Sequence record: NC_019705.1
From: Escherichia phage mEpX2
Length of the DNA: 38,759 nt
Strand: one strand, 5' to 3'
Both the position numbers and the translations under genes were made by a program. This document shows positions 11,941 to 21,244 of the stretch, in pieces. The first letter of the stretch is position 1, and each line of letters opens with the position of its first letter. The notes beneath the pieces were generated by a model. That model was not told the DNA's origin. It saw nothing but the letters and a program-made list of their open reading frames with translations, and made no database searches.

Positions 11941-12651
11941 ATGCGTCAGAAAACCATCGATGCCATCATGGCGCATGCCGCTGCGGAATACCCGCGAGAG
12001 TGCTGCGGCGTGGTGGCGCAGAAAAGCCGGGTTGAGCGTTATTTCCCCTGCCGCAACCTTTCTGAAGAGCCGACAGAACATTTTCACCTTTCTCCCGAAG
12101 ACTACGCAGCTGCCGAAGACTGGGGGACGGTGGTAGCCATTGTTCACAGCCACCCTGACGCGACGACGCAGGCCAGCGAGCTTGATAAGGCGCAATGTGA
12201 TGCAACGCTGCTGCCCTGGCATATTGTGAGCTGGCCGGAGGGGGATTTACGCACCATCCAGCCGCGCGGAGAACTGCCACTGCTGGAGCGTCCGTTTGTG
12301 CTTGGACACTTCGACTGCTGGGGGCTGGTAATGAGCTATTTCCGGCAAACGCATGGTATCGAGCTCCACGATTACCGGGTGGATTATCCCTGGTGGGAAA
12401 ACGCCTATCCGGACAATTTTTATCAGGATTGCTGGTATGAATGCGGATTCCGTGAATTCGACGGACCACCGAAACCCGGTGATATGGTGATCATGCAGGT
12501 CCAGGCCGATAAGTGGAATCACGCGGGAATTCTGCTGGAGGGAAATATGCTGCTGCACCACCTGTACGGACATCTGAGCCAGCGCGTGCCGTATGGTGGC
12601 TACTGGCAGGAAAGGACGATGAAGATTCTACGTTACAAATCTCTGTGCTAA
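11941..12651 (+). CDS. tail assembly protein K (MPN/JAB + NlpC/P60-like)
   Basis: 236-aa ORF with HSHP metalloprotease-like motif and conserved Cys/His, lambda gpK-like. Confidence 0.85.
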   Translation: MRQKTIDAIMAHAAAEYPRECCGVVAQKSRVERYFPCRNLSEEPTEHFHLSPEDYAAAEDWGTVVAIVHSHPDATTQASELDKAQCDATLLPWHIVSWPEGDLRTIQPRGELPLLERPFVLGHFDCWGLVMSYFRQTHGIELHDYRVDYPWWENAYPDNFYQDCWYECGFREFDGPPKPGDMVIMQVQADKWNHAGILLEGNMLLHHLYGHLSQRVPYGGYWQERTMKILRYKSLC

Positions 12652-12680: not shown

Positions 12681-13022
12681 ATGAAAAAAACATTATTGAC
12701 ACTTTCTTTGATAATCATGGCTGGTTGTTCGAGTATGCAGGATCTCCGGAAGGAACCAGCGTCAAATACTTTTCAATCGAAGAAACAAATTGACGCAGTA
12801 GCTGAATGCATACTCTCTGGCTGGCAAGAAGAAAGCCAAAAATATGGAAGCGTTTTTATTCAGCCTTATGACGGTGGTAAAACTGTATTTACACAATCTC
12901 AACTTGAGATGGTTGATTTAATATCGGACGGCGGAATTACCAAGATTGAATTCCGTCATCAAGGTGGGCTATTTGCTTATCGAATAAACAGCCGGATTAA
13001 AGTAATAGAACGCTGTATCTAA
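12681..13022 (+). CDS. lipoprotein (moron inserted between tail genes K and I)
   Basis: Signal peptide MKKTLLTLSLIIMAGC with lipobox; AT-rich relative to flanks; own SD; followed by terminator. Confidence 0.6.
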   Translation: MKKTLLTLSLIIMAGCSSMQDLRKEPASNTFQSKKQIDAVAECILSGWQEESQKYGSVFIQPYDGGKTVFTQSQLEMVDLISDGGITKIEFRHQGGLFAYRINSRIKVIERCI

Positions 13023-13032
13023 CCAAGACTTA

Positions 13033-13055
13033 ACCCGCTTCGGCGGGTTTTTTTA
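13033..13055 (+). terminator. intrinsic terminator
   Basis: ACCCGC-TTCG-GCGGGT hairpin plus TTTTTTT. Confidence 0.6.
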
Positions 13056-13065
13056 TGGTGAGAAT

Positions 13066-13671
13066 ATGAAAGAAGTAATGACAACAATTCAGCTCGGCGG
13101 AGTGTTAGGAAAGACATTCGGTAGAACCCATCAACGACTGATAGCGCGAACTGGTGAAGCTGCTATTGCTTTAAGTAAAACATTGCCCGGTTTCGAAAGT
13201 TTCATGATCAGCAGTAAACGTCGCGGATTAACTTTCGCGGTGTTCAAAGGGAAAAGAAATATTGCCGCAGATGAGATGGGTTTTCCCTCTGAAGGCGATG
13301 TAGTAAGGATTATGCCTGTAATTATCGGTAGTAAACGCGCTGGTCTTTTTCAGACGATATTAGGAGCAGTTTTGATAACTGCTGCAGTCTTTGTTTCTGG
13401 CGGTATTGGCGCTGCTTTCGCTGCTGGTGGATTGACGGGGTTTGCTGCTGCCACTGGTGCCTCGTTGGTCCTCGGTGGGGTTATTCAGCTGCTTTCACCG
13501 CAGCCATCAGGCATAGCCAGTAAACAAAGCGCAGATAACCGTGCATCGTATGCGTTTGGCGGGGTAACCAACACTGCAGCGCAAGGCTACCCGGTGCCTC
13601 TGCTTTATGGTAAGCGTCGAATCGGCGGAGCGATTATTTCTGCCGGAATTTATGTCGAAGATCAGCAGTAG
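13066..13671 (+). CDS. tail assembly protein I
   Basis: 201-aa ORF with ubiquitin-like N-terminus and glycine-rich hydrophobic C-terminus, lambda gpI-like. Confidence 0.8.
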   Translation: MKEVMTTIQLGGVLGKTFGRTHQRLIARTGEAAIALSKTLPGFESFMISSKRRGLTFAVFKGKRNIAADEMGFPSEGDVVRIMPVIIGSKRAGLFQTILGAVLITAAVFVSGGIGAAFAAGGLTGFAAATGASLVLGGVIQLLSPQPSGIASKQSADNRASYAFGGVTNTAAQGYPVPLLYGKRRIGGAIISAGIYVEDQQ

Positions 13672-13723: not shown

Positions 13724-16700
13724 ATGGCTACAGATAAAGTGTTAAAAGGCCGCAAGGGCGGCAGCTCAAGTTCCCGAACTCCTACCGAACAGCCTGATGA
13801 TCTGCAATCTGTAGCGAAGGCAAAAATCCTCGTTGCGCTTGGGGAAGGTGAGTTTGCAGGGCAGCTCACCGGCAAAGATATCTACCTGGACGGAACAGCG
13901 CTGGAGAATGCTGACGGCTCCCAAAACTTCAGCGGGGTAACGTGGGAGTTTCGCGCGGGAACTCAGGCGCAAAAATATATTCAGGGTATTCCCGGTACCG
14001 AAAACGAGATCAGCGTAGGAACTGAGGTATCAAGTGCCACAGCCTGGACGCGCACGTTTACCAATACGCAGCTTTCAGCAGTTCGCCTGCGTCTTAAATG
14101 GCCCTCGCTTTTCAAACAGGAAGACGACGGCGATCTGGTGGGTTACTCGGTCAATTATGCGATTGACCTGCAGACGGACGGCGGCACATGGCAGACGGTA
14201 CTCAATACCAGCGTGACCGGCAAAACAACGTCTGGTTATGAGCGCAGCCACCGTATCGATTTACCGCAGGCTGGCAGCACATGGACAATACGTCTGCGTA
14301 AGATTACCTCTGACGCCAACAGCGCGAAAATCGGCGACACGATGATGCTGCAGAGCTTCACCGAGGTGATTGATGCCAAACTGCGCTACCCGAACACCGC
14401 GCTGCTCTACGTCGAATTCGACTCAAGCCAGTTCAACGGCTCTATTCCTCAAATTTCATGCGAACCGCGCGGCCGCGTTATCCGCGTTCCAGATACCTAC
14501 GACCCTGAAACCCGCACTTATAGCGGTACATGGACCGGTGCGTTTAAGTGGGCATGGACGGATAACCCTGCGTGGATTTTTTACGACCTGGTTGTTTCTG
14601 ACCGGTTTGGCCTCGGGCACCGTTTGACCGCTGCGAATATTGATAAATGGACTCTTTATCAGGTTGCTCAGTATTGTGATCAGATGGTACCAGACGGCAA
14701 AGGGGGCAACGGTACAGAACCACGCTATACCTGCAACGTGTACATTCAGGACCGGAACGACGCCTACACAGTCCTGCGTGATTTTGCCGCTATCTTCCGT
14801 GGCATGACCTACTGGGGCGGGGATCAGATTGTGGCCCTGGCTGACATGCCGCGCGATGTTGATTACAGCTATACGCGCGCTAACGTTGTTGGCGGTCGCT
14901 TCACCTATTCGAGCAGCACCACGAAAAGCCGCTACACCACAGCGCTGGTTTCATGGTCAGATCCGGGTAACGCTTATGCCGACGCAATGGAGCCGGTATT
15001 TGAGCAGGCGCTGGTGGCGCGATACGGCTTCAATCAGCTGGAAATGACAGCCATCGGCTGCACCAGGCAGTCAGAGGCGAACCGAAAGGGGCGCTGGGGT
15101 ATTCTCACCAATAACAAGGATCGCGTTGTTTCGTTTGATGTCGGGCTGGACGGAAACATTCCGCAGCCGGGCTACATCATCGCCGTGGCAGACGAGCTGC
15201 TTTCCGGAAAGGTTATGGGCGGCCGCATCAGCGCCGTTAACGGTCGCGTTATCAAACTTGACCGCGTAGCTGATGCAGCACCAGGTGATCGCCTTATTCT
15301 CAACCTTCCCTCCGGAGCGTCGCAGAGCAGGACCATTCAGGCCGTGAACGGGGAATCAGTCACAGTCACCACGGCATACAGTGAGACGCCACAGGCCGAA
15401 GCTGTTTGGGTGGTTGAATCTGACGAGCTTTACGCGCAGCAGTATCGTGTTGTCAGCGTTTCCGATAACAATGATGGCACTTTCTCGATTACCGGCGCAT
15501 GGCACGACCCGGATAAATATGCCCGTATCGATACCGGAGCCATCATTGACCAACGGCCGGTGAGCGTGATCCCGCCGGGCAACCAGTCGCCGCCTGCGAA
15601 TATCGTGATCAGCTCGTTTTCCGTGGTTCAGCAAAATATCAGCGTCGAAACAATGCGCGTGAGCTGGTACCAGGCGCAGAACGCTATCGCCTATGAAGCA
15701 CAATGGCGCCGCAACGACGGGAACTGGGTTAACGTGCCGCGCACCTCCACCACGTCATTCGACGTCCCGGGGATTTATGCCGGGCGCTACCTGGTGCGGG
15801 TGCGCGCAATCAATGCCGCAGAAATTTCATCCGGATGGGGCTATTCAGAAGAGAAAACGCTGACGGGTAAAGTGGGCAATCCACCTAAGCCGGTTGGCTT
15901 CATCGCTTCTGAAAATGTGGTTTTCGGCATCGAGCTGAACTGGGGATTCCCGGCGAATACCGACGACACGCTGAAGACGGAAATTCAGTACAGCCTGACC
16001 GGAACCGAGGACGATGCGATGCTGCTGGCCGATGTGCCTTATCCGCAGCGCAAATATCAGCAGATGGGCCTCAAGGCTGGGCAGATTTTCTGGTACCGCG
16101 CTCAGCTGGTGGACCGCAGCGGCAACGAATCAGGGTACACAGAATGGGTGCGAGGACAGGCCAGCATCGATGTTTCCGACATCACAGATGTGATCCTGGA
16201 GGACATGAAAGGCTCCGATACGTTCAAAGACCTGATCGAGAACGCTGTGGACAGCAATGAAAAAATTGCTGGCATGGCTGACGAAATCAAAAACCATGCC
16301 GACGAACTCGAGCAGCAGGCGAAAGACATCCAGGAAAACGCTGACGGGCTGGCCCAGGCCGAAGTGAAGATCGACGAGATTTCTGTGTCGATGGATGGCA
16401 TGACGGGAGGCGTGAAGAACTCGGCAATCGCGATTATCCAGAATGGGCTGGCGCAGGTTGTCAGTCGTCGTTCCCAGACCGCGACAAACGCAGGGAACAG
16501 CGCCAGCATTGACCGTATCGACACGACCATAGCCGACACCAGCTCGGCGGTTGCTCGCGCGCTGGTGACGCTGGATGCTTCAGCTGGTGGGAATATCTCC
16601 AACTCTACCGATCTCACTGAAACTCTGGCCGATTTCACGCAGGCATCGGCGACAAAAATTAACACCCTGACTGTTAAATCTGGCGAAAACAGTGCCGCGA

Positions 16701-17179
16701 TAAATGTCAACGCACAGGCTATCGCAGATGTAAACGGTAACCTAAGTGCGATGTACAACATCAAGGTTGGTGTCTCCAGCAATGGACAGTATTACGCCGC
16801 GGGGATGGGTATCGGCGTGGAGAATACGCCATCCGGCATGCAGTCGCAGGTTATCTTCCTGGCTGATCGCTTCGCCGTCACCACGGCAGCCGGAAATAGC
16901 GTGGCTTTGCCGTTTGTGATCCAGAATGGACAGACATTCATCCGGGCCAGTTTCATCCAGGACGGCACTATCAGCAACGCAAAGATTGGTAATTTTATCC
17001 AGTCGAACAATTATGTTGCTGGTTCTGCTGGCTGGAAGCTTGATAAAGGGGGGACGTTTGAGAACTACGGTTCGACTGCTGGTGAGGGAGCCATGAAACT
17101 GACAAATCAGACGATCAGCGTCAAAGATGGCAGTAATGTTCTTAGGGTGCAGGTTGGCCGATTAACGGGAGTATTCTGA
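13724..17179 (+). CDS. host specificity protein J (tail tip/central fiber)
   Basis: 1151-aa ORF following K and I, lambda gpJ-like size and order. Confidence 0.9.
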   Translation: MATDKVLKGRKGGSSSSRTPTEQPDDLQSVAKAKILVALGEGEFAGQLTGKDIYLDGTALENADGSQNFSGVTWEFRAGTQAQKYIQGIPGTENEISVGTEVSSATAWTRTFTNTQLSAVRLRLKWPSLFKQEDDGDLVGYSVNYAIDLQTDGGTWQTVLNTSVTGKTTSGYERSHRIDLPQAGSTWTIRLRKITSDANSAKIGDTMMLQSFTEVIDAKLRYPNTALLYVEFDSSQFNGSIPQISCEPRGRVIRVPDTYDPETRTYSGTWTGAFKWAWTDNPAWIFYDLVVSDRFGLGHRLTAANIDKWTLYQVAQYCDQMVPDGKGGNGTEPRYTCNVYIQDRNDAYTVLRDFAAIFRGMTYWGGDQIVALADMPRDVDYSYTRANVVGGRFTYSSSTTKSRYTTALVSWSDPGNAYADAMEPVFEQALVARYGFNQLEMTAIGCTRQSEANRKGRWGILTNNKDRVVSFDVGLDGNIPQPGYIIAVADELLSGKVMGGRISAVNGRVIKLDRVADAAPGDRLILNLPSGASQSRTIQAVNGESVTVTTAYSETPQAEAVWVVESDELYAQQYRVVSVSDNNDGTFSITGAWHDPDKYARIDTGAIIDQRPVSVIPPGNQSPPANIVISSFSVVQQNISVETMRVSWYQAQNAIAYEAQWRRNDGNWVNVPRTSTTSFDVPGIYAGRYLVRVRAINAAEISSGWGYSEEKTLTGKVGNPPKPVGFIASENVVFGIELNWGFPANTDDTLKTEIQYSLTGTEDDAMLLADVPYPQRKYQQMGLKAGQIFWYRAQLVDRSGNESGYTEWVRGQASIDVSDITDVILEDMKGSDTFKDLIENAVDSNEKIAGMADEIKNHADELEQQAKDIQENADGLAQAEVKIDEISVSMDGMTGGVKNSAIAIIQNGLAQVVSRRSQTATNAGNSASIDRIDTTIADTSSAVARALVTLDASAGGNISNSTDLTETLADFTQASATKINTLTVKSGENSAAINVNAQAIADVNGNLSAMYNIKVGVSSNGQYYAAGMGIGVENTPSGMQSQVIFLADRFAVTTAAGNSVALPFVIQNGQTFIRASFIQDGTISNAKIGNFIQSNNYVAGSAGWKLDKGGTFENYGSTAGEGAMKLTNQTISVKDGSNVLRVQVGRLTGVF

Positions 17180-17180
17180 A

Positions 17181-17483
17181 ATGGCTTATGGAATACAGAC
17201 CTGGGATGCTTCAGGAAAACCCAACAACTATGGCATCAAACCCGTTTCCGTCGTTGGGCGAATACAGCTGGCTGCCGGGCAAACCTCCGGCAGCTGGTCT
17301 TTTACGGTGCCCTCAGGAATGAAAGTTGGTTTTGTTCTTTCACTTGATGAAGGAGGTAACAGCGTAGGGCGGCGCATTGTCGCGTCAGGGAGCACAATAA
17401 CCGTAAGCGCTGCATCTTCTGTAGGTCTGGGTAATTATCCGGCCTCAAAGTGTGAAGTGGTCGTTTTCATGGAGAAAGCATAA
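17181..17483 (+). CDS. hypothetical protein downstream of J
   Basis: 100-aa ORF tightly coupled to J stop. Confidence 0.45.
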   Translation: MAYGIQTWDASGKPNNYGIKPVSVVGRIQLAAGQTSGSWSFTVPSGMKVGFVLSLDEGGNSVGRRIVASGSTITVSAASSVGLGNYPASKCEVVVFMEKA

Positions 17484-18121
17484 TGGCCGAATTTGGCGCG
17501 ATGATATTAATGGACAACGGGAACCCATTTGTAACGCCCCAGTCAACGCCTTTTTGTCTTTACGGCAAGTACACTTTCAACTCCTCTGCTAATGGCAGTT
17601 CGCAGCAGGTTGCTCAGAATATTGCATTAAATGCTGACTACCCTGTGATGGTATTTATCAGGACCACAAATACCGCCCAGCCCACGCCAGTAATATCTTA
17701 CCGGAACGGCGGAAATATATATGTCGCGGGGGTTAATCCCTATAACCAGAGCTTCACGTTAACCGCATATATTTTTGCCATATTTCCCCAGACGTTACCG
17801 AAATGGGGGATGGCCATCTGGGATTCGAGCGGGAAGCTGGTACTCACTAATGAGTCCCGCGTGCTGTCAGACTTGCAGACAATCGGAACGCCTGGAGCAA
17901 ACGGCGGGATTAACATTGACCAGACGCTTGATGGTTCATGGGCAGTGGCTCCATCAAGGCTGGGGCAAGTGAACAGAAACGACGCTTACTCATCTTGTAG
18001 GTATTCAGGCACAAGTACAAGAATAAACGCCGGTACAGCCGCAAATACACCTGGCGGTGCTGGAGGGGTGATAAATAATGGAATTATCCTGACAGCAATT
18101 AAAACAGACGCCTATGATTGA
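17483..18121 (+). CDS. hypothetical protein downstream of J
   Basis: 212-aa ORF with ATGA-type coupling to upstream ORF. Confidence 0.5.
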   Translation: MAEFGAMILMDNGNPFVTPQSTPFCLYGKYTFNSSANGSSQQVAQNIALNADYPVMVFIRTTNTAQPTPVISYRNGGNIYVAGVNPYNQSFTLTAYIFAIFPQTLPKWGMAIWDSSGKLVLTNESRVLSDLQTIGTPGANGGINIDQTLDGSWAVAPSRLGQVNRNDAYSSCRYSGTSTRINAGTAANTPGGAGGVINNGIILTAIKTDAYD

Positions 18122-18228
18122 TTGTTTTGAGCGATCAATAACAAATAATTTATCTATCTAATCAATTATACCCATCGATTATGTATTGGTATCTTCGAAG
18201 CTACTGAATACCTCTGGATACTATCAAA

Positions 18229-18462
18229 ATGAAAAGGCTAATTATCTGCATAGCGGGCGCTTTAATGCTGTCTGGTTGCGCTGGTGTACTTGAGAAACAG
18301 AAACCGATTTGCAGCGGCACGGCATATATGGGTGGCCATGAGAATACCGTTATGATTTACGCCGTTCGAAAGCAAAACAACCAGACGCAATACCAGGCCG
18401 GATATCCCTTTAACTGGCGCTGGGTAAGTGCGAACACATTCACAAGCACGACATGTAAATAA
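18229..18462 (+). CDS. small outer-membrane lipoprotein, Cor-like superinfection exclusion candidate
   Basis: 77-aa ORF, signal peptide with lipobox LSGC; AT-rich upstream region; location after J as for cor genes of phi80/N15-type phages. Confidence 0.5.
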   Translation: MKRLIICIAGALMLSGCAGVLEKQKPICSGTAYMGGHENTVMIYAVRKQNNQTQYQAGYPFNWRWVSANTFTSTTCK

Positions 18463-18482
18463 CTCATGATTTTCAATGCAAA

Positions 18483-18506
18483 CCTCGCCTCGGCGGGGTT
18501 TTTTAT
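18483..18506 (+). terminator. intrinsic terminator
   Basis: CCTCGC-CTCG-GCGGGG hairpin with TTTTTTATT. Confidence 0.55.
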
Positions 18507-18520
18507 TGCCTGGAGAAAAT

Positions 18521-19690
18521 ATGCTTTATAACACTGGAACCATCGCCATTAACGGAAACAGCGCCACCGGCACGGGCACGAACTGGACGGCACCCGCCAG
18601 CCAGGTTCGCGCTGGCCAGACGATTATCGTGATGTCTAACCCGGTGCAGCTGTTCCAGATTTCATCCGTGAACAGCGCCACGTCAATGACGGTTACGCCA
18701 GCTGCATCACCGGCGCTGAGCGGCCAGAAGTACGGCATTCTGGTATCAGACAATATCTCGGTTGATGGGCTGGCGCTGGCCATGTCGCAGCTTATCAAAG
18801 AGTACGACGAGAATATTGGCGCGTGGGAGACGTTCGCCACCACCTCAGCAAACCAAAGCATCACAGTTACCATCAACGGCACCGCCGTAACCATCCCAGG
18901 CATCGGTAAACTTGCGCAGAAAGGGAGCAACGGTGCGGTTACTGTCGCAGACGGCGGAACCGGCGCAACGAATGCCGCAGACGCTCGCACAAACCTCAGT
19001 TTAGGAAACAGCGCTACGAGGGACGTTGGAACTGAGACAGGAACGGTGGCCGCCGGTGATGACCCCCGACTTAACACAGTGAACGGCAAGACGTCTGGTG
19101 TCGTAAAGGGTGATTTCTTTACCCTGGATAATAGGTACGGCCATACAACCCAGTTATTGACATACAACCCTGGAACAGTGGGGACGCATTTTGGCGGTAT
19201 GTCTATGAAGCGACCCAATTCACAGGGATGGATTTTGTCGCAATACACTACGACTGATTATGAAGTTCAGTCAGTGACGATCGGCATCGATGCACCAGGC
19301 GCAAACGTTAACTGGATATTCAACCGCAACGGACAGGCAACCGGAACCTGGGTAAATAACAGTGACAGCAGGATTAAGAAAGACATCAAACCAATCCCGG
19401 ATCCACTTGTTGCCATGAAGAAAATCAGAGGCTGTTCGTGGACACGTCTTGACTCAGGTGTAACCGGCTTTGGTTTTATAGCGCAGGAGGTTCAGGAGGT
19501 ATTCCCGGAGGCTGTTCATGATTTTGGACAGTCCATGACTATGGAAGATGGAAAAGAAGTTGAAAACGTCCTGTCGGTCGATACCAGTGGAGTATCAGCT
19601 GCACTCCATCATGAGGCGATACTGGCATTGATGGTGGAAATTGAAGAGCTAAAAACTGAGATGAAATCCCTGACAGGAGTGGGGCGGTGA
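18521..19690 (+). CDS. side tail fiber protein with C-terminal intramolecular chaperone (peptidase S74) domain
   Basis: 389-aa ORF; SD GGAGA before ATG at 18521; C-terminal NNSDSRIKKDI motif characteristic of autoproteolytic chaperone domain. Confidence 0.7.
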   Translation: MLYNTGTIAINGNSATGTGTNWTAPASQVRAGQTIIVMSNPVQLFQISSVNSATSMTVTPAASPALSGQKYGILVSDNISVDGLALAMSQLIKEYDENIGAWETFATTSANQSITVTINGTAVTIPGIGKLAQKGSNGAVTVADGGTGATNAADARTNLSLGNSATRDVGTETGTVAAGDDPRLNTVNGKTSGVVKGDFFTLDNRYGHTTQLLTYNPGTVGTHFGGMSMKRPNSQGWILSQYTTTDYEVQSVTIGIDAPGANVNWIFNRNGQATGTWVNNSDSRIKKDIKPIPDPLVAMKKIRGCSWTRLDSGVTGFGFIAQEVQEVFPEAVHDFGQSMTMEDGKEVENVLSVDTSGVSAALHHEAILALMVEIEELKTEMKSLTGVGR

Positions 19691-19899
19691 AGCTGCCGCA
19701 ACCATGCCGTATGCAAGAGCATGACTGCGGCTGACTGGCTCACGTCCGATAGTGCGAGTATTGAATGATTTCCAGCCGTTACCGATTTTACTATGTTTTC
19801 AGTAGAACGCTTAGACAAAACTGAGGCGCACAAAGCTTTGCACTGGATTGCAAGACTTTGTGCTCTTCTGTGGATGTGTGTCTACATGTTTGAAGATTG

Positions 19900-20083: not shown

Positions 20084-21244
20084 TTACCTAGCATTTAAGT
20101 AAACTACGTTCTCCTCTTGTGCCGTATTTGTGCCATTGCGACTTATAATCGCATCGATTTTGCTCGCGTGCTCGGTGAGATGCCCGGCTGAAAGGTGGGC
20201 GTATCTTTGAACCATTTCGAGAGTTTCCCATCCTCCCATCTCTTTAAGTGCAAGAAGAGAGACACCGGACTGAACCAGCCAGCTTGCCCAAGTATGCCTC
20301 AGGTCATGGAAGCGGAAGTTGCTAATGCCTGCCCGCTTTAACGCTCCCTTCCATGCCTTGTTGCTGTCGGTTCTCATCTTCCTTACCGCTGCTGTTTTTG
20401 TTCCGTCGCTTCGGTAGGCAGGTTTGGTGTGGACAAACACCCATCTCTTATGGAGACCCTGCTGTTTTCTTAATATCTGGCATGCGGTTTCGTTAAGAGG
20501 AACTCCGATCGCATTGCCAGCTTTTGTTTCATCAGGGTGCATCCATGCCATTTTCTTATCCAGATCGACCTGTGACCACTCAAGGTCTGTAACGTTGGAA
20601 CGGCGAAGGCCTGTCGTGATTGCAAACATGACCACAGGGAAGAAATGAGGAGCAATTTCTGCAAACAGGCGCTTCGATTCCTCCTCTGTAAGCCATCTGA
20701 TCCGTCCATTCTTAACGCGTGGTGTTGATATTTTTGGCGCCCTGTCAAGCCATCCCCATTCAACAGCCATATTGAGAATAGCGCGAAGTATTGCCAGATG
20801 CCGCGTCTTCGTTCCTTTGCTTGCCAGCTTTGGTTTATACTCCGGCACTGGCTTGCCAAGCCGCAAACACCTGTCCCGGCTCATTTCCCAGTTCAGGCGA
20901 TGGCGGCGGTTTTCCATCCCGTCTACCGCCTCCATTATTTTTTCTGATGTTATGTCTGAGAGAATGGTTTCTCTGAAGTGCAACATCCAGAACGATATAA
21001 TGCTCTTGTCATCATCAATGGACTTCTTATCCGATTTCTCACGCAGCCACCGTATGCAGGCTTCCTTGAATAGCTTTTTCGGTGATTCCCCGAGATTTTT
21101 TACTCTCCACGCTTCTGCTTTCAGACGATCGTGAAGTTCTTGCGCTTGCCTTTTGTCCGATGTTTCAAGAGAGCGTCTAACTCTTGATCCATCTGGCGCG
21201 ACGAAATCACAGTGCCACGTGCCACCGCGTAGTTTGATTGACAT
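20084..21244 (-). CDS. int: tyrosine integrase (P22 Int-like)
   Basis: 386-aa ORF with HDLRHTWAS and RYAHL catalytic motifs; adjacent to tRNA-derived att core. Confidence 0.9.
   Translation of the reverse strand: MSIKLRGGTWHCDFVAPDGSRVRRSLETSDKRQAQELHDRLKAEAWRVKNLGESPKKLFKEACIRWLREKSDKKSIDDDKSIISFWMLHFRETILSDITSEKIMEAVDGMENRRHRLNWEMSRDRCLRLGKPVPEYKPKLASKGTKTRHLAILRAILNMAVEWGWLDRAPKISTPRVKNGRIRWLTEEESKRLFAEIAPHFFPVVMFAITTGLRRSNVTDLEWSQVDLDKKMAWMHPDETKAGNAIGVPLNETACQILRKQQGLHKRWVFVHTKPAYRSDGTKTAAVRKMRTDSNKAWKGALKRAGISNFRFHDLRHTWASWLVQSGVSLLALKEMGGWETLEMVQRYAHLSAGHLTEHASKIDAIISRNGTNTAQEENVVYLNAR
20117..20132. repeat. 16-bp direct repeat TTGTGCCGTATTTGTG (putative integrase arm-type site, copy 2)
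   Basis: Exact repeat of 19900-19915; lies within 3' end of int coding sequence. Confidence 0.4.

Follow-up and report, generated by a model that had tools for sequence, protein, structure and literature searches.

The window analysed here, that is the whole stretch of 38,759 bp of the phage mEpX2 genome, contains a small lipoprotein gene in its tail region, which is assigned below as cor. The gene order around it was J, an ORF similar to gp22 of N15, an ORF similar to gp23 of N15, an AT-rich spacer, cor, a terminator and the side tail fiber gene (Table 1). The start codon of the gp22-like ORF lies 2 nt after the stop of J, and the start of the gp23-like ORF overlaps the stop preceding it. 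The GC content was 0.30 in the spacer, 0.47 in the cor coding sequence, 0.55 in J and 0.53 in the tail fiber gene, with 0.50 for the whole stretch. A ribosome-binding region was found within the spacer, with GGA about 10 nt 5' of the cor ATG. The original prediction had described at this place a 77-aa ORF with a signal peptide and the lipobox LSGC, lying between the J-associated ORFs and the tail fiber gene, with an AT-rich region upstream and its own terminator, and each of these elements was recovered.

Table 1. Features of the cor region of mEpX2 (positions in the window)
Feature	Position	Strand	Description	Basis
J	13724..17179 (C-terminal 250 residues, 16430..17179)	+	Receptor-binding end of the tail tip protein, phi80 type	
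N15 gp22-like ORF	17181..17483	+	100 aa	PHROG 557 at E 2.4e-36
N15 gp23-like ORF	17483..18121	+	212 aa	PHROG 425 at E 9.7e-75
Sigma-70-like site	18089..18118	+	CTGACA-18-TATGAT, 10/12; in the last codons of the upstream ORF; candidate moron promoter	
AT-rich spacer 5' of cor	18122..18228	+	107 bp, GC 0.30; presumed regulatory region	
cor	18229..18462	+	ATG start, 77-aa lipoprotein precursor	ORF list, family models
Intrinsic-terminator-like hairpin and T-run	18480..18507 (hairpin, 18480..18501)	+	3' of cor, 5' of the tail fiber gene	
Side tail fiber gene	18521..19690	+	389 aa; GGAG ribosome-binding site 5' of the start	

The full precursor of 77 residues is MKRLIICIAGALMLSGCAGVLEKQKPICSGTAYMGGHENTVMIYAVRKQNNQTQYQAGYPFNWRWVSANTFTSTTCK. 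Its N-terminus, MKRLIICIAGALMLSGC followed by AGV, had an n-region made basic by K2 and R3, after which came a hydrophobic core and then the lipobox L-S-G-C, whose cysteine is Cys17. The signal peptide comprised residues 1-16, and Ala, and not Asp, occupied position +2 after Cys17. In the Lol pathway, the residue following the lipidated Cys sets the sorting between outer and inner membrane, with Asp at +2 leading to retention. Cor is thus predicted to be sorted to the outer membrane. Without its signal peptide the protein measures 61 aa, and its cysteines are then residues 1, 12 and 60. The reading frame could be regarded as more than a chance one, since cor was under purifying selection when compared with phi80 cor (pS 0.585, pN 0.123, dN/dS 0.118) and the family matches were very strong.

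Two family models covered practically the entire protein. The NCBIfam equivalog NF047972 (phage exclusion lipoprotein Cor) was matched with 137.7 bits, with a curated (trusted) cutoff of 31 bits, and residues 1-76 of the protein were aligned to positions 1-76 of the 78 in the profile; PHROG 1119 (Cor superinfection exclusion protein) was matched over residues 1-77 at E 4.7e-37. In direct alignments, the protein was identical to HK022 Cor in 76 of 77 residues (99%), and the identity was 78% to phi80 Cor, 62% to N15 Cor (gp24) and 35% to T1 Cor. The single difference from HK022 was at position 56, with Q here and R in HK022, and Q at this position occurs in other members of the Cor family as well. 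A total of 42 columns were invariant among the comparisons with HK022, phi80 and N15. When 32 homologs were aligned, C17, C28, C76 and the motif A57-G58-Y59-P60-F61 were invariant or nearly so; among them C17, C76, G58, P60 and F61 were strictly invariant, and C28 was present in 90% or more.

The names given to this family in databases were uniform. All 76 named homologs were called Cor or phage exclusion lipoprotein Cor, and homologs were found in Escherichia, Enterobacter, Salmonella, Citrobacter and Rouxiella. When the cassette was searched by megablast against 5,426 complete E. coli genomes, 36 of them matched, and for all 10 listed among these 36, PGAP annotated "cor: phage exclusion lipoprotein Cor" at the cassette. 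Positions 17100-19800 of the window were 100% identical to the mEpX2 record PV340544.1 (38,763 bp), where the gene is already labelled "Cor".

It could be asked whether the product is a small lipoprotein with some other role, such as o-spanin-like lysis, tail assembly or host fitness, whose likeness to Cor is superficial. Many unrelated lipoprotein families did indeed give weak matches at the N-terminus. Pfam was without a Cor family and returned only sub-threshold noise for this protein (MiAMP1 at E 0.14, and LPAM_1), and no PADLOC model matched Cor or the neighbouring genes. The weak matches, however, spanned and reflected the signal peptide only, and spanin or other lipoprotein roles were ruled out for that reason. 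Besides, the gene is placed in the tail region, outside any lysis cassette, and has no i-spanin partner next to it. With the curated Cor models matched at full length and the near identity to HK022 Cor, this explanation is already effectively refuted, and we regard it as extremely improbable.

The ORF is therefore assigned, by its sequence, as cor of the lambdoid phage mEpX2 and as the orthologue of cor in HK022, phi80 and N15. The original prediction had proposed Cor from gene context and protein type, and the full-length matches to NF047972 and PHROG 1119, together with the positive homology search against the Cor proteins of phi80, N15 and HK022, bear it out; a call made from the raw sequence was correct, and the sequence tools agree with it. 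The gene itself is already known, being annotated in the deposited mEpX2 genome and differing by one residue from the studied HK022 orthologue.

Downstream of cor, eighteen bases 3' of its stop codon, a hairpin of 9 pairs (5 of them G-C) with a loop of 4 was identified, whose arms and loop are AAACCTCGC-CTCG-GCGGGGTTT and which is followed by TTTTTTATT. The RNA fold of 18463-18520 was -17.7 kcal/mol, with z = -2.45 against shuffles. The hairpin is kept in HK022, phi80 and N15, and phi80 and N15 differ from mEpX2 on both stem arms (for example CCTCGC/GCGGGG in mEpX2 vs CCCTGC/GCAGGG in N15). In the records of phi80 and N15, too, a putative terminator is annotated at this place. Transcription of the tail fiber gene would presumably rely on late transcripts that pass this terminator under the action of the phage Q antiterminator.

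On the upstream side, a promoter of its own was the one element of the cassette that was not borne out. The sole sigma-70-like site lies inside the upstream ORF, and such sites were no commoner than in shuffled sequence (1 found in the 1.6-kb region vs a shuffle mean of 2.0). N15 has a counterpart at the same position (TTGACG-18-TACGAT, 9/12), and no counterpart passing the criteria was found in phi80; the conservation in N15 could be due to the coding sequence. Inside the AT-rich spacer, nothing in the promoter scan reached 9/12, and the only palindromes were two imperfect inverted repeats, both short (9-10 nt). A Fur box in the spacer, by which cor would be co-regulated with fhuA by iron, was also tried as a candidate and rejected, as its best match of 10/19 was equalled by 1959 of 2000 shuffles, and the candidate was not conserved in phi80 either.

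Two of the three hallmarks of a moron, deviant composition and an own terminator, were hence observed at cor, while the third, the promoter, was not demonstrable from sequence. The AT-rich spacer and the terminator mark cor as a moron-type unit. Prophage expression of mEpX2 cor is then expected, because lysogen phenotypes have been reported for HK022, N15 and phi80. A different view of its expression would be that cor is made only from the late antiterminated lytic transcript, as llp of T5 and cor of T1 are, and is no conversion gene expressed by the prophage; its main role would be to keep progeny virions from being wasted on FhuA in debris, and not to protect the lysogen. The lack of a promoter above chance 5' of cor fits this, as does the presence of a Cor of the same family in the virulent phage T1, and keeping progeny from adsorbing to debris is among the roles under discussion (PMC13164509). 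Against it, lysogens of HK022, N15 and phi80 are described as protected by Cor (PMC3594210), the cassettes of mEpX2 and HK022 are virtually the same with the spacer included, and the low-GC spacer with an own terminator is the signature of a moron. Moreover, protection of the lysogen and protection of the progeny are not mutually exclusive. Exclusively late expression is thus considered improbable, and the moron-type unit expressed in the prophage is preferred.

A second moron-like lipoprotein cassette was observed elsewhere in the window at 12681..13022 (+), flanked by the K-like tail gene (11941..12651) and the I-like one (13066..13671). Its product of 113 aa starts with MKKTLLTLSLIIMAGC, its GC content was 0.40, and it has its own Shine-Dalgarno sequence as well as a terminator-like hairpin with a T-run at about 13029..13056. 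The protein had a match in PHROG 914 (unknown function) but none in NCBIfam, Pfam or PADLOC, and of 50,697 phage records only those of mEpX2 and HK140 (100%) and of two Klebsiella phages (38%) contained it. This lipoprotein could be another surface or exclusion factor. On the other side of cor, a Peptidase_S74 intramolecular chaperone domain was recognised towards the C-terminus of the side tail fiber protein (residues 281-333, E 1.6e-13), and the DNA of the gene for this protein was common to HK022 and mEpX1 only up to about position 19000, with a different distal part. Further downstream, the gap at the 20084..21244 (-) feature likely contains attP, the attP of HK022 being annotated between stf and int.

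The receptor of mEpX2 could be approached through J, which has a Pfam Phage_Tail_Tip domain at residues 993-1126. Its C-terminal 250 aa were 99.2% identical to J of phi80, 79% to that of HK022 and 43% to that of N15. Since phi80 is an FhuA-dependent phage, we infer that mEpX2 adsorbs to FhuA like phi80 and carries the matching exclusion gene. The block of J, gp22, gp23 and cor has been reported to be specific to FhuA-using phages in a 2026 paper (PMC13164509).

The two ORFs between J and cor were compared in the same way. The gp22-like ORF was 100% identical to its counterparts in HK022 and phi80 and 55% to the ORF beside cor in T1, and the gp23-like ORF was 100% identical to HK022, 82% to phi80, 59% to N15 and 51% to the T1 ORF beside cor. 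Both ORFs are taken as context, the gp22-like one being outside the cor transcription unit proper. They gave weak matches to tailspike C-terminal models (E 0.015-0.024), and no recognisable signal peptide was seen in them by eye, despite the database labels. In FhuA-using phages, cor is always found together with these two conserved ORFs. That they work with Cor or with the tail tip that binds FhuA, which would make Cor the known part of an FhuA-specific module of three genes, is a rather doubtful proposal.

The identities also revealed a mosaic joint. The end of J was of phi80 type, and the gp23-like ORF and cor were of HK022 type (100% and 99% to HK022 vs 82% and 78% to phi80), with the gp22-like ORF identical to both. 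A recombination point would therefore lie around 17180-17480, and the module of tail tip and cor is judged from these alignments to be a mosaic of phi80-type and HK022-type segments. From the combination of a phi80-type J end with an HK022-type Cor it might further be proposed, again rather doubtfully, that phages binding FhuA can exchange their Cor alleles freely.

Concerning function, the Cor proteins of HK022, N15 and phi80 inactivate FhuA, protect lysogens from FhuA-dependent phages and lower ferrichrome uptake, according to PMC3594210 (citing Uc-Mass et al. 2004). Exclusion by Cor is reported for HK022, N15, phi80 and mEp167 in that source and in a preprint (bioRxiv 10.64898/2026.03.26.714494). 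For mEpX2 Cor, the literature search found no experiment or report of an exclusion phenotype. By analogy, the mEpX2 lysogen or infected cell would exclude T1, T5, phi80, HK022, N15, phages of the mEp167 type and mEpX2 itself, at the cost of a reduced ferrichrome uptake. A lambda/HK022/mEpX2 triple lysogen has been built (PMC3442831), and as HK022 and mEpX2 have near-identical Cor and J ends of the FhuA type, exclusion would have to be leaky and not absolute, or dependent on the order of lysogenisation. It was also observed in such triple lysogens that mEpX2 relieved the mutual interference of lambda and HK022 (PMC3442831).

The mechanism is best considered together with Llp of phage T5, which inactivates the same receptor. 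Llp, the lytic conversion lipoprotein, acts in the periplasm, where it binds the FhuA plug in a non-native state and makes the extracellular loops EL7 and EL8 fold inward; in its mature form it consists of 61 residues, with a lipidated Cys1 and a Cys11-Cys58 disulfide (PMC9586334). The AF2 model of Cor had a pLDDT of about 87-91 over residues 30-77, the fold of Llp was recognised in Cor, and FhuA-bound Llp was the best structural match. The Llp structures are PDB 8A60 (chain B) and 7QJF. In a Foldseek search of the PDB with Cor, Llp was absent from the top 50 matches listed, and the Foldseek search of viral models in BFVD gave a match at E 2.3e-4 to a lipoprotein from DT571/2, a T5-like phage.

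At the sequence level, the two proteins could not be connected. BLASTP of Cor against the verified T5 Llp gave no alignment, a single-sequence search of the PDB with Cor gave 0 hits, the Cor profile found in the PDB an unrelated protein as its best match (E 0.75) and did not reach Llp, and T5 Llp did not match the NCBIfam Cor model NF047972. By hhalign a probability of 70.5% was obtained, over residues 1-44 only and mostly in the signal peptide, with C28 of Cor aligned to C26 of Llp. Because the BLASTP search was empty and the hhalign result was dominated by the signal peptide, homology of Cor and Llp is not claimed.

For mEpX2 the following course may be proposed. Export of the 77-aa precursor and lipidation of Cys17 would go along with cleavage of the signal peptide by signal peptidase II. 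The 61-aa beta-domain would then bind the periplasmic face and the plug of the TonB-dependent transporter FhuA, and a disulfide between Cys12 and Cys60 (mature numbering) probably clamps this domain. FhuA would in this way be locked in a state unfit as phage receptor or for ferrichrome transport, as with T5 Llp. Such a lipid-anchored periplasmic clamp on FhuA is the favoured mechanism, because the Llp-like fold and cysteine pattern agree with earlier predictions for the Cor of HK022, phi80, mEp167 and T1-like phages (bioRxiv 10.64898/2026.03.26.714494; PMC13164509).

The gene would still be cor if its product excluded FhuA-dependent phages indirectly, through other outer-membrane proteins and with no Llp-like 1:1 periplasmic complex. 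A review reports that mEp167 Cor interacts with other outer-membrane proteins, a "Cor-OMP interaction" (PMC9311878, summarising Arguijo-Hernandez et al. 2018), and the mechanism may accordingly be other than a simple 1:1 complex of Cor and FhuA. According to the 2026 preprint, the way in which Cor works at the molecular level "has not yet been elucidated" (bioRxiv 10.64898/2026.03.26.714494), and the absence of detectable sequence similarity between Cor and Llp points the same way. Against an indirect action stand the structural match of Cor to FhuA-bound Llp, the length and cysteine pattern common to both, and an AlphaFold3 model in which the Cor of the T1-like phage KanT1 is placed on the periplasmic side of FhuA with ipTM 0.84 (PMC13164509). 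We consider an indirect action unlikely and retain the clamp on FhuA as the working mechanism. The explanation as a whole, an orthologous cor in a moron-type unit whose product acts as an Llp-like clamp on FhuA and excludes FhuA-dependent phages, is held with high confidence. The remaining uncertainty in mechanism and regulation belongs to the whole Cor family and not to the mEpX2 locus in particular.

Seen in this way, Cor is a textbook example of how a prophage alters the surface of its host: FhuA is closed to rival phages and also to colicin M and albomycin, the cost being ferrichrome uptake. The closest known systems are the Cor proteins of HK022 (gp27, AAF30376.1), phi80 (AFV29164.1) and N15 (gp24, NP_046919.1), which have the same length, lipobox and three cysteine positions after the signal peptide as in mEpX2. 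In all three phages the gene order from J through the gp22-like and gp23-like ORFs, cor and the terminator to the tail fiber is the same as in mEpX2, as are the AT-rich spacer and the terminator, and the HK022 record labels the product of cor "moron gene product". The moron concept of lambdoid phages is said to go back to Juhala et al. in 2000. Like cor, lambdoid morons are single genes of lower GC with an own terminator between late genes, and gp15 of HK97 is another exclusion moron.

The Cor family also extends to T1 and to other Drexlerviridae. T1 Cor passed NF047972 with 55.8 bits (cutoff 31), and with only 35% identity to mEpX2 Cor it conserved C17, C28, C76 and the AGYPF motif. T1 cor adjoins homologs of the same two ORFs, but on the strand opposite to the J, gp22-like and gp23-like genes, and since T1 is virulent, its cor would act in lytic infection only. 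Llp of T5 stands further away. The mature length is 61 aa in both proteins, and the cysteines at 11 and 58 of Llp have their counterparts in the conserved ones at 12 and 60 of Cor, yet no sequence similarity was found beyond the signal peptide and the first cysteine, and the resemblance is thus one of working alike and not of membership in one family.
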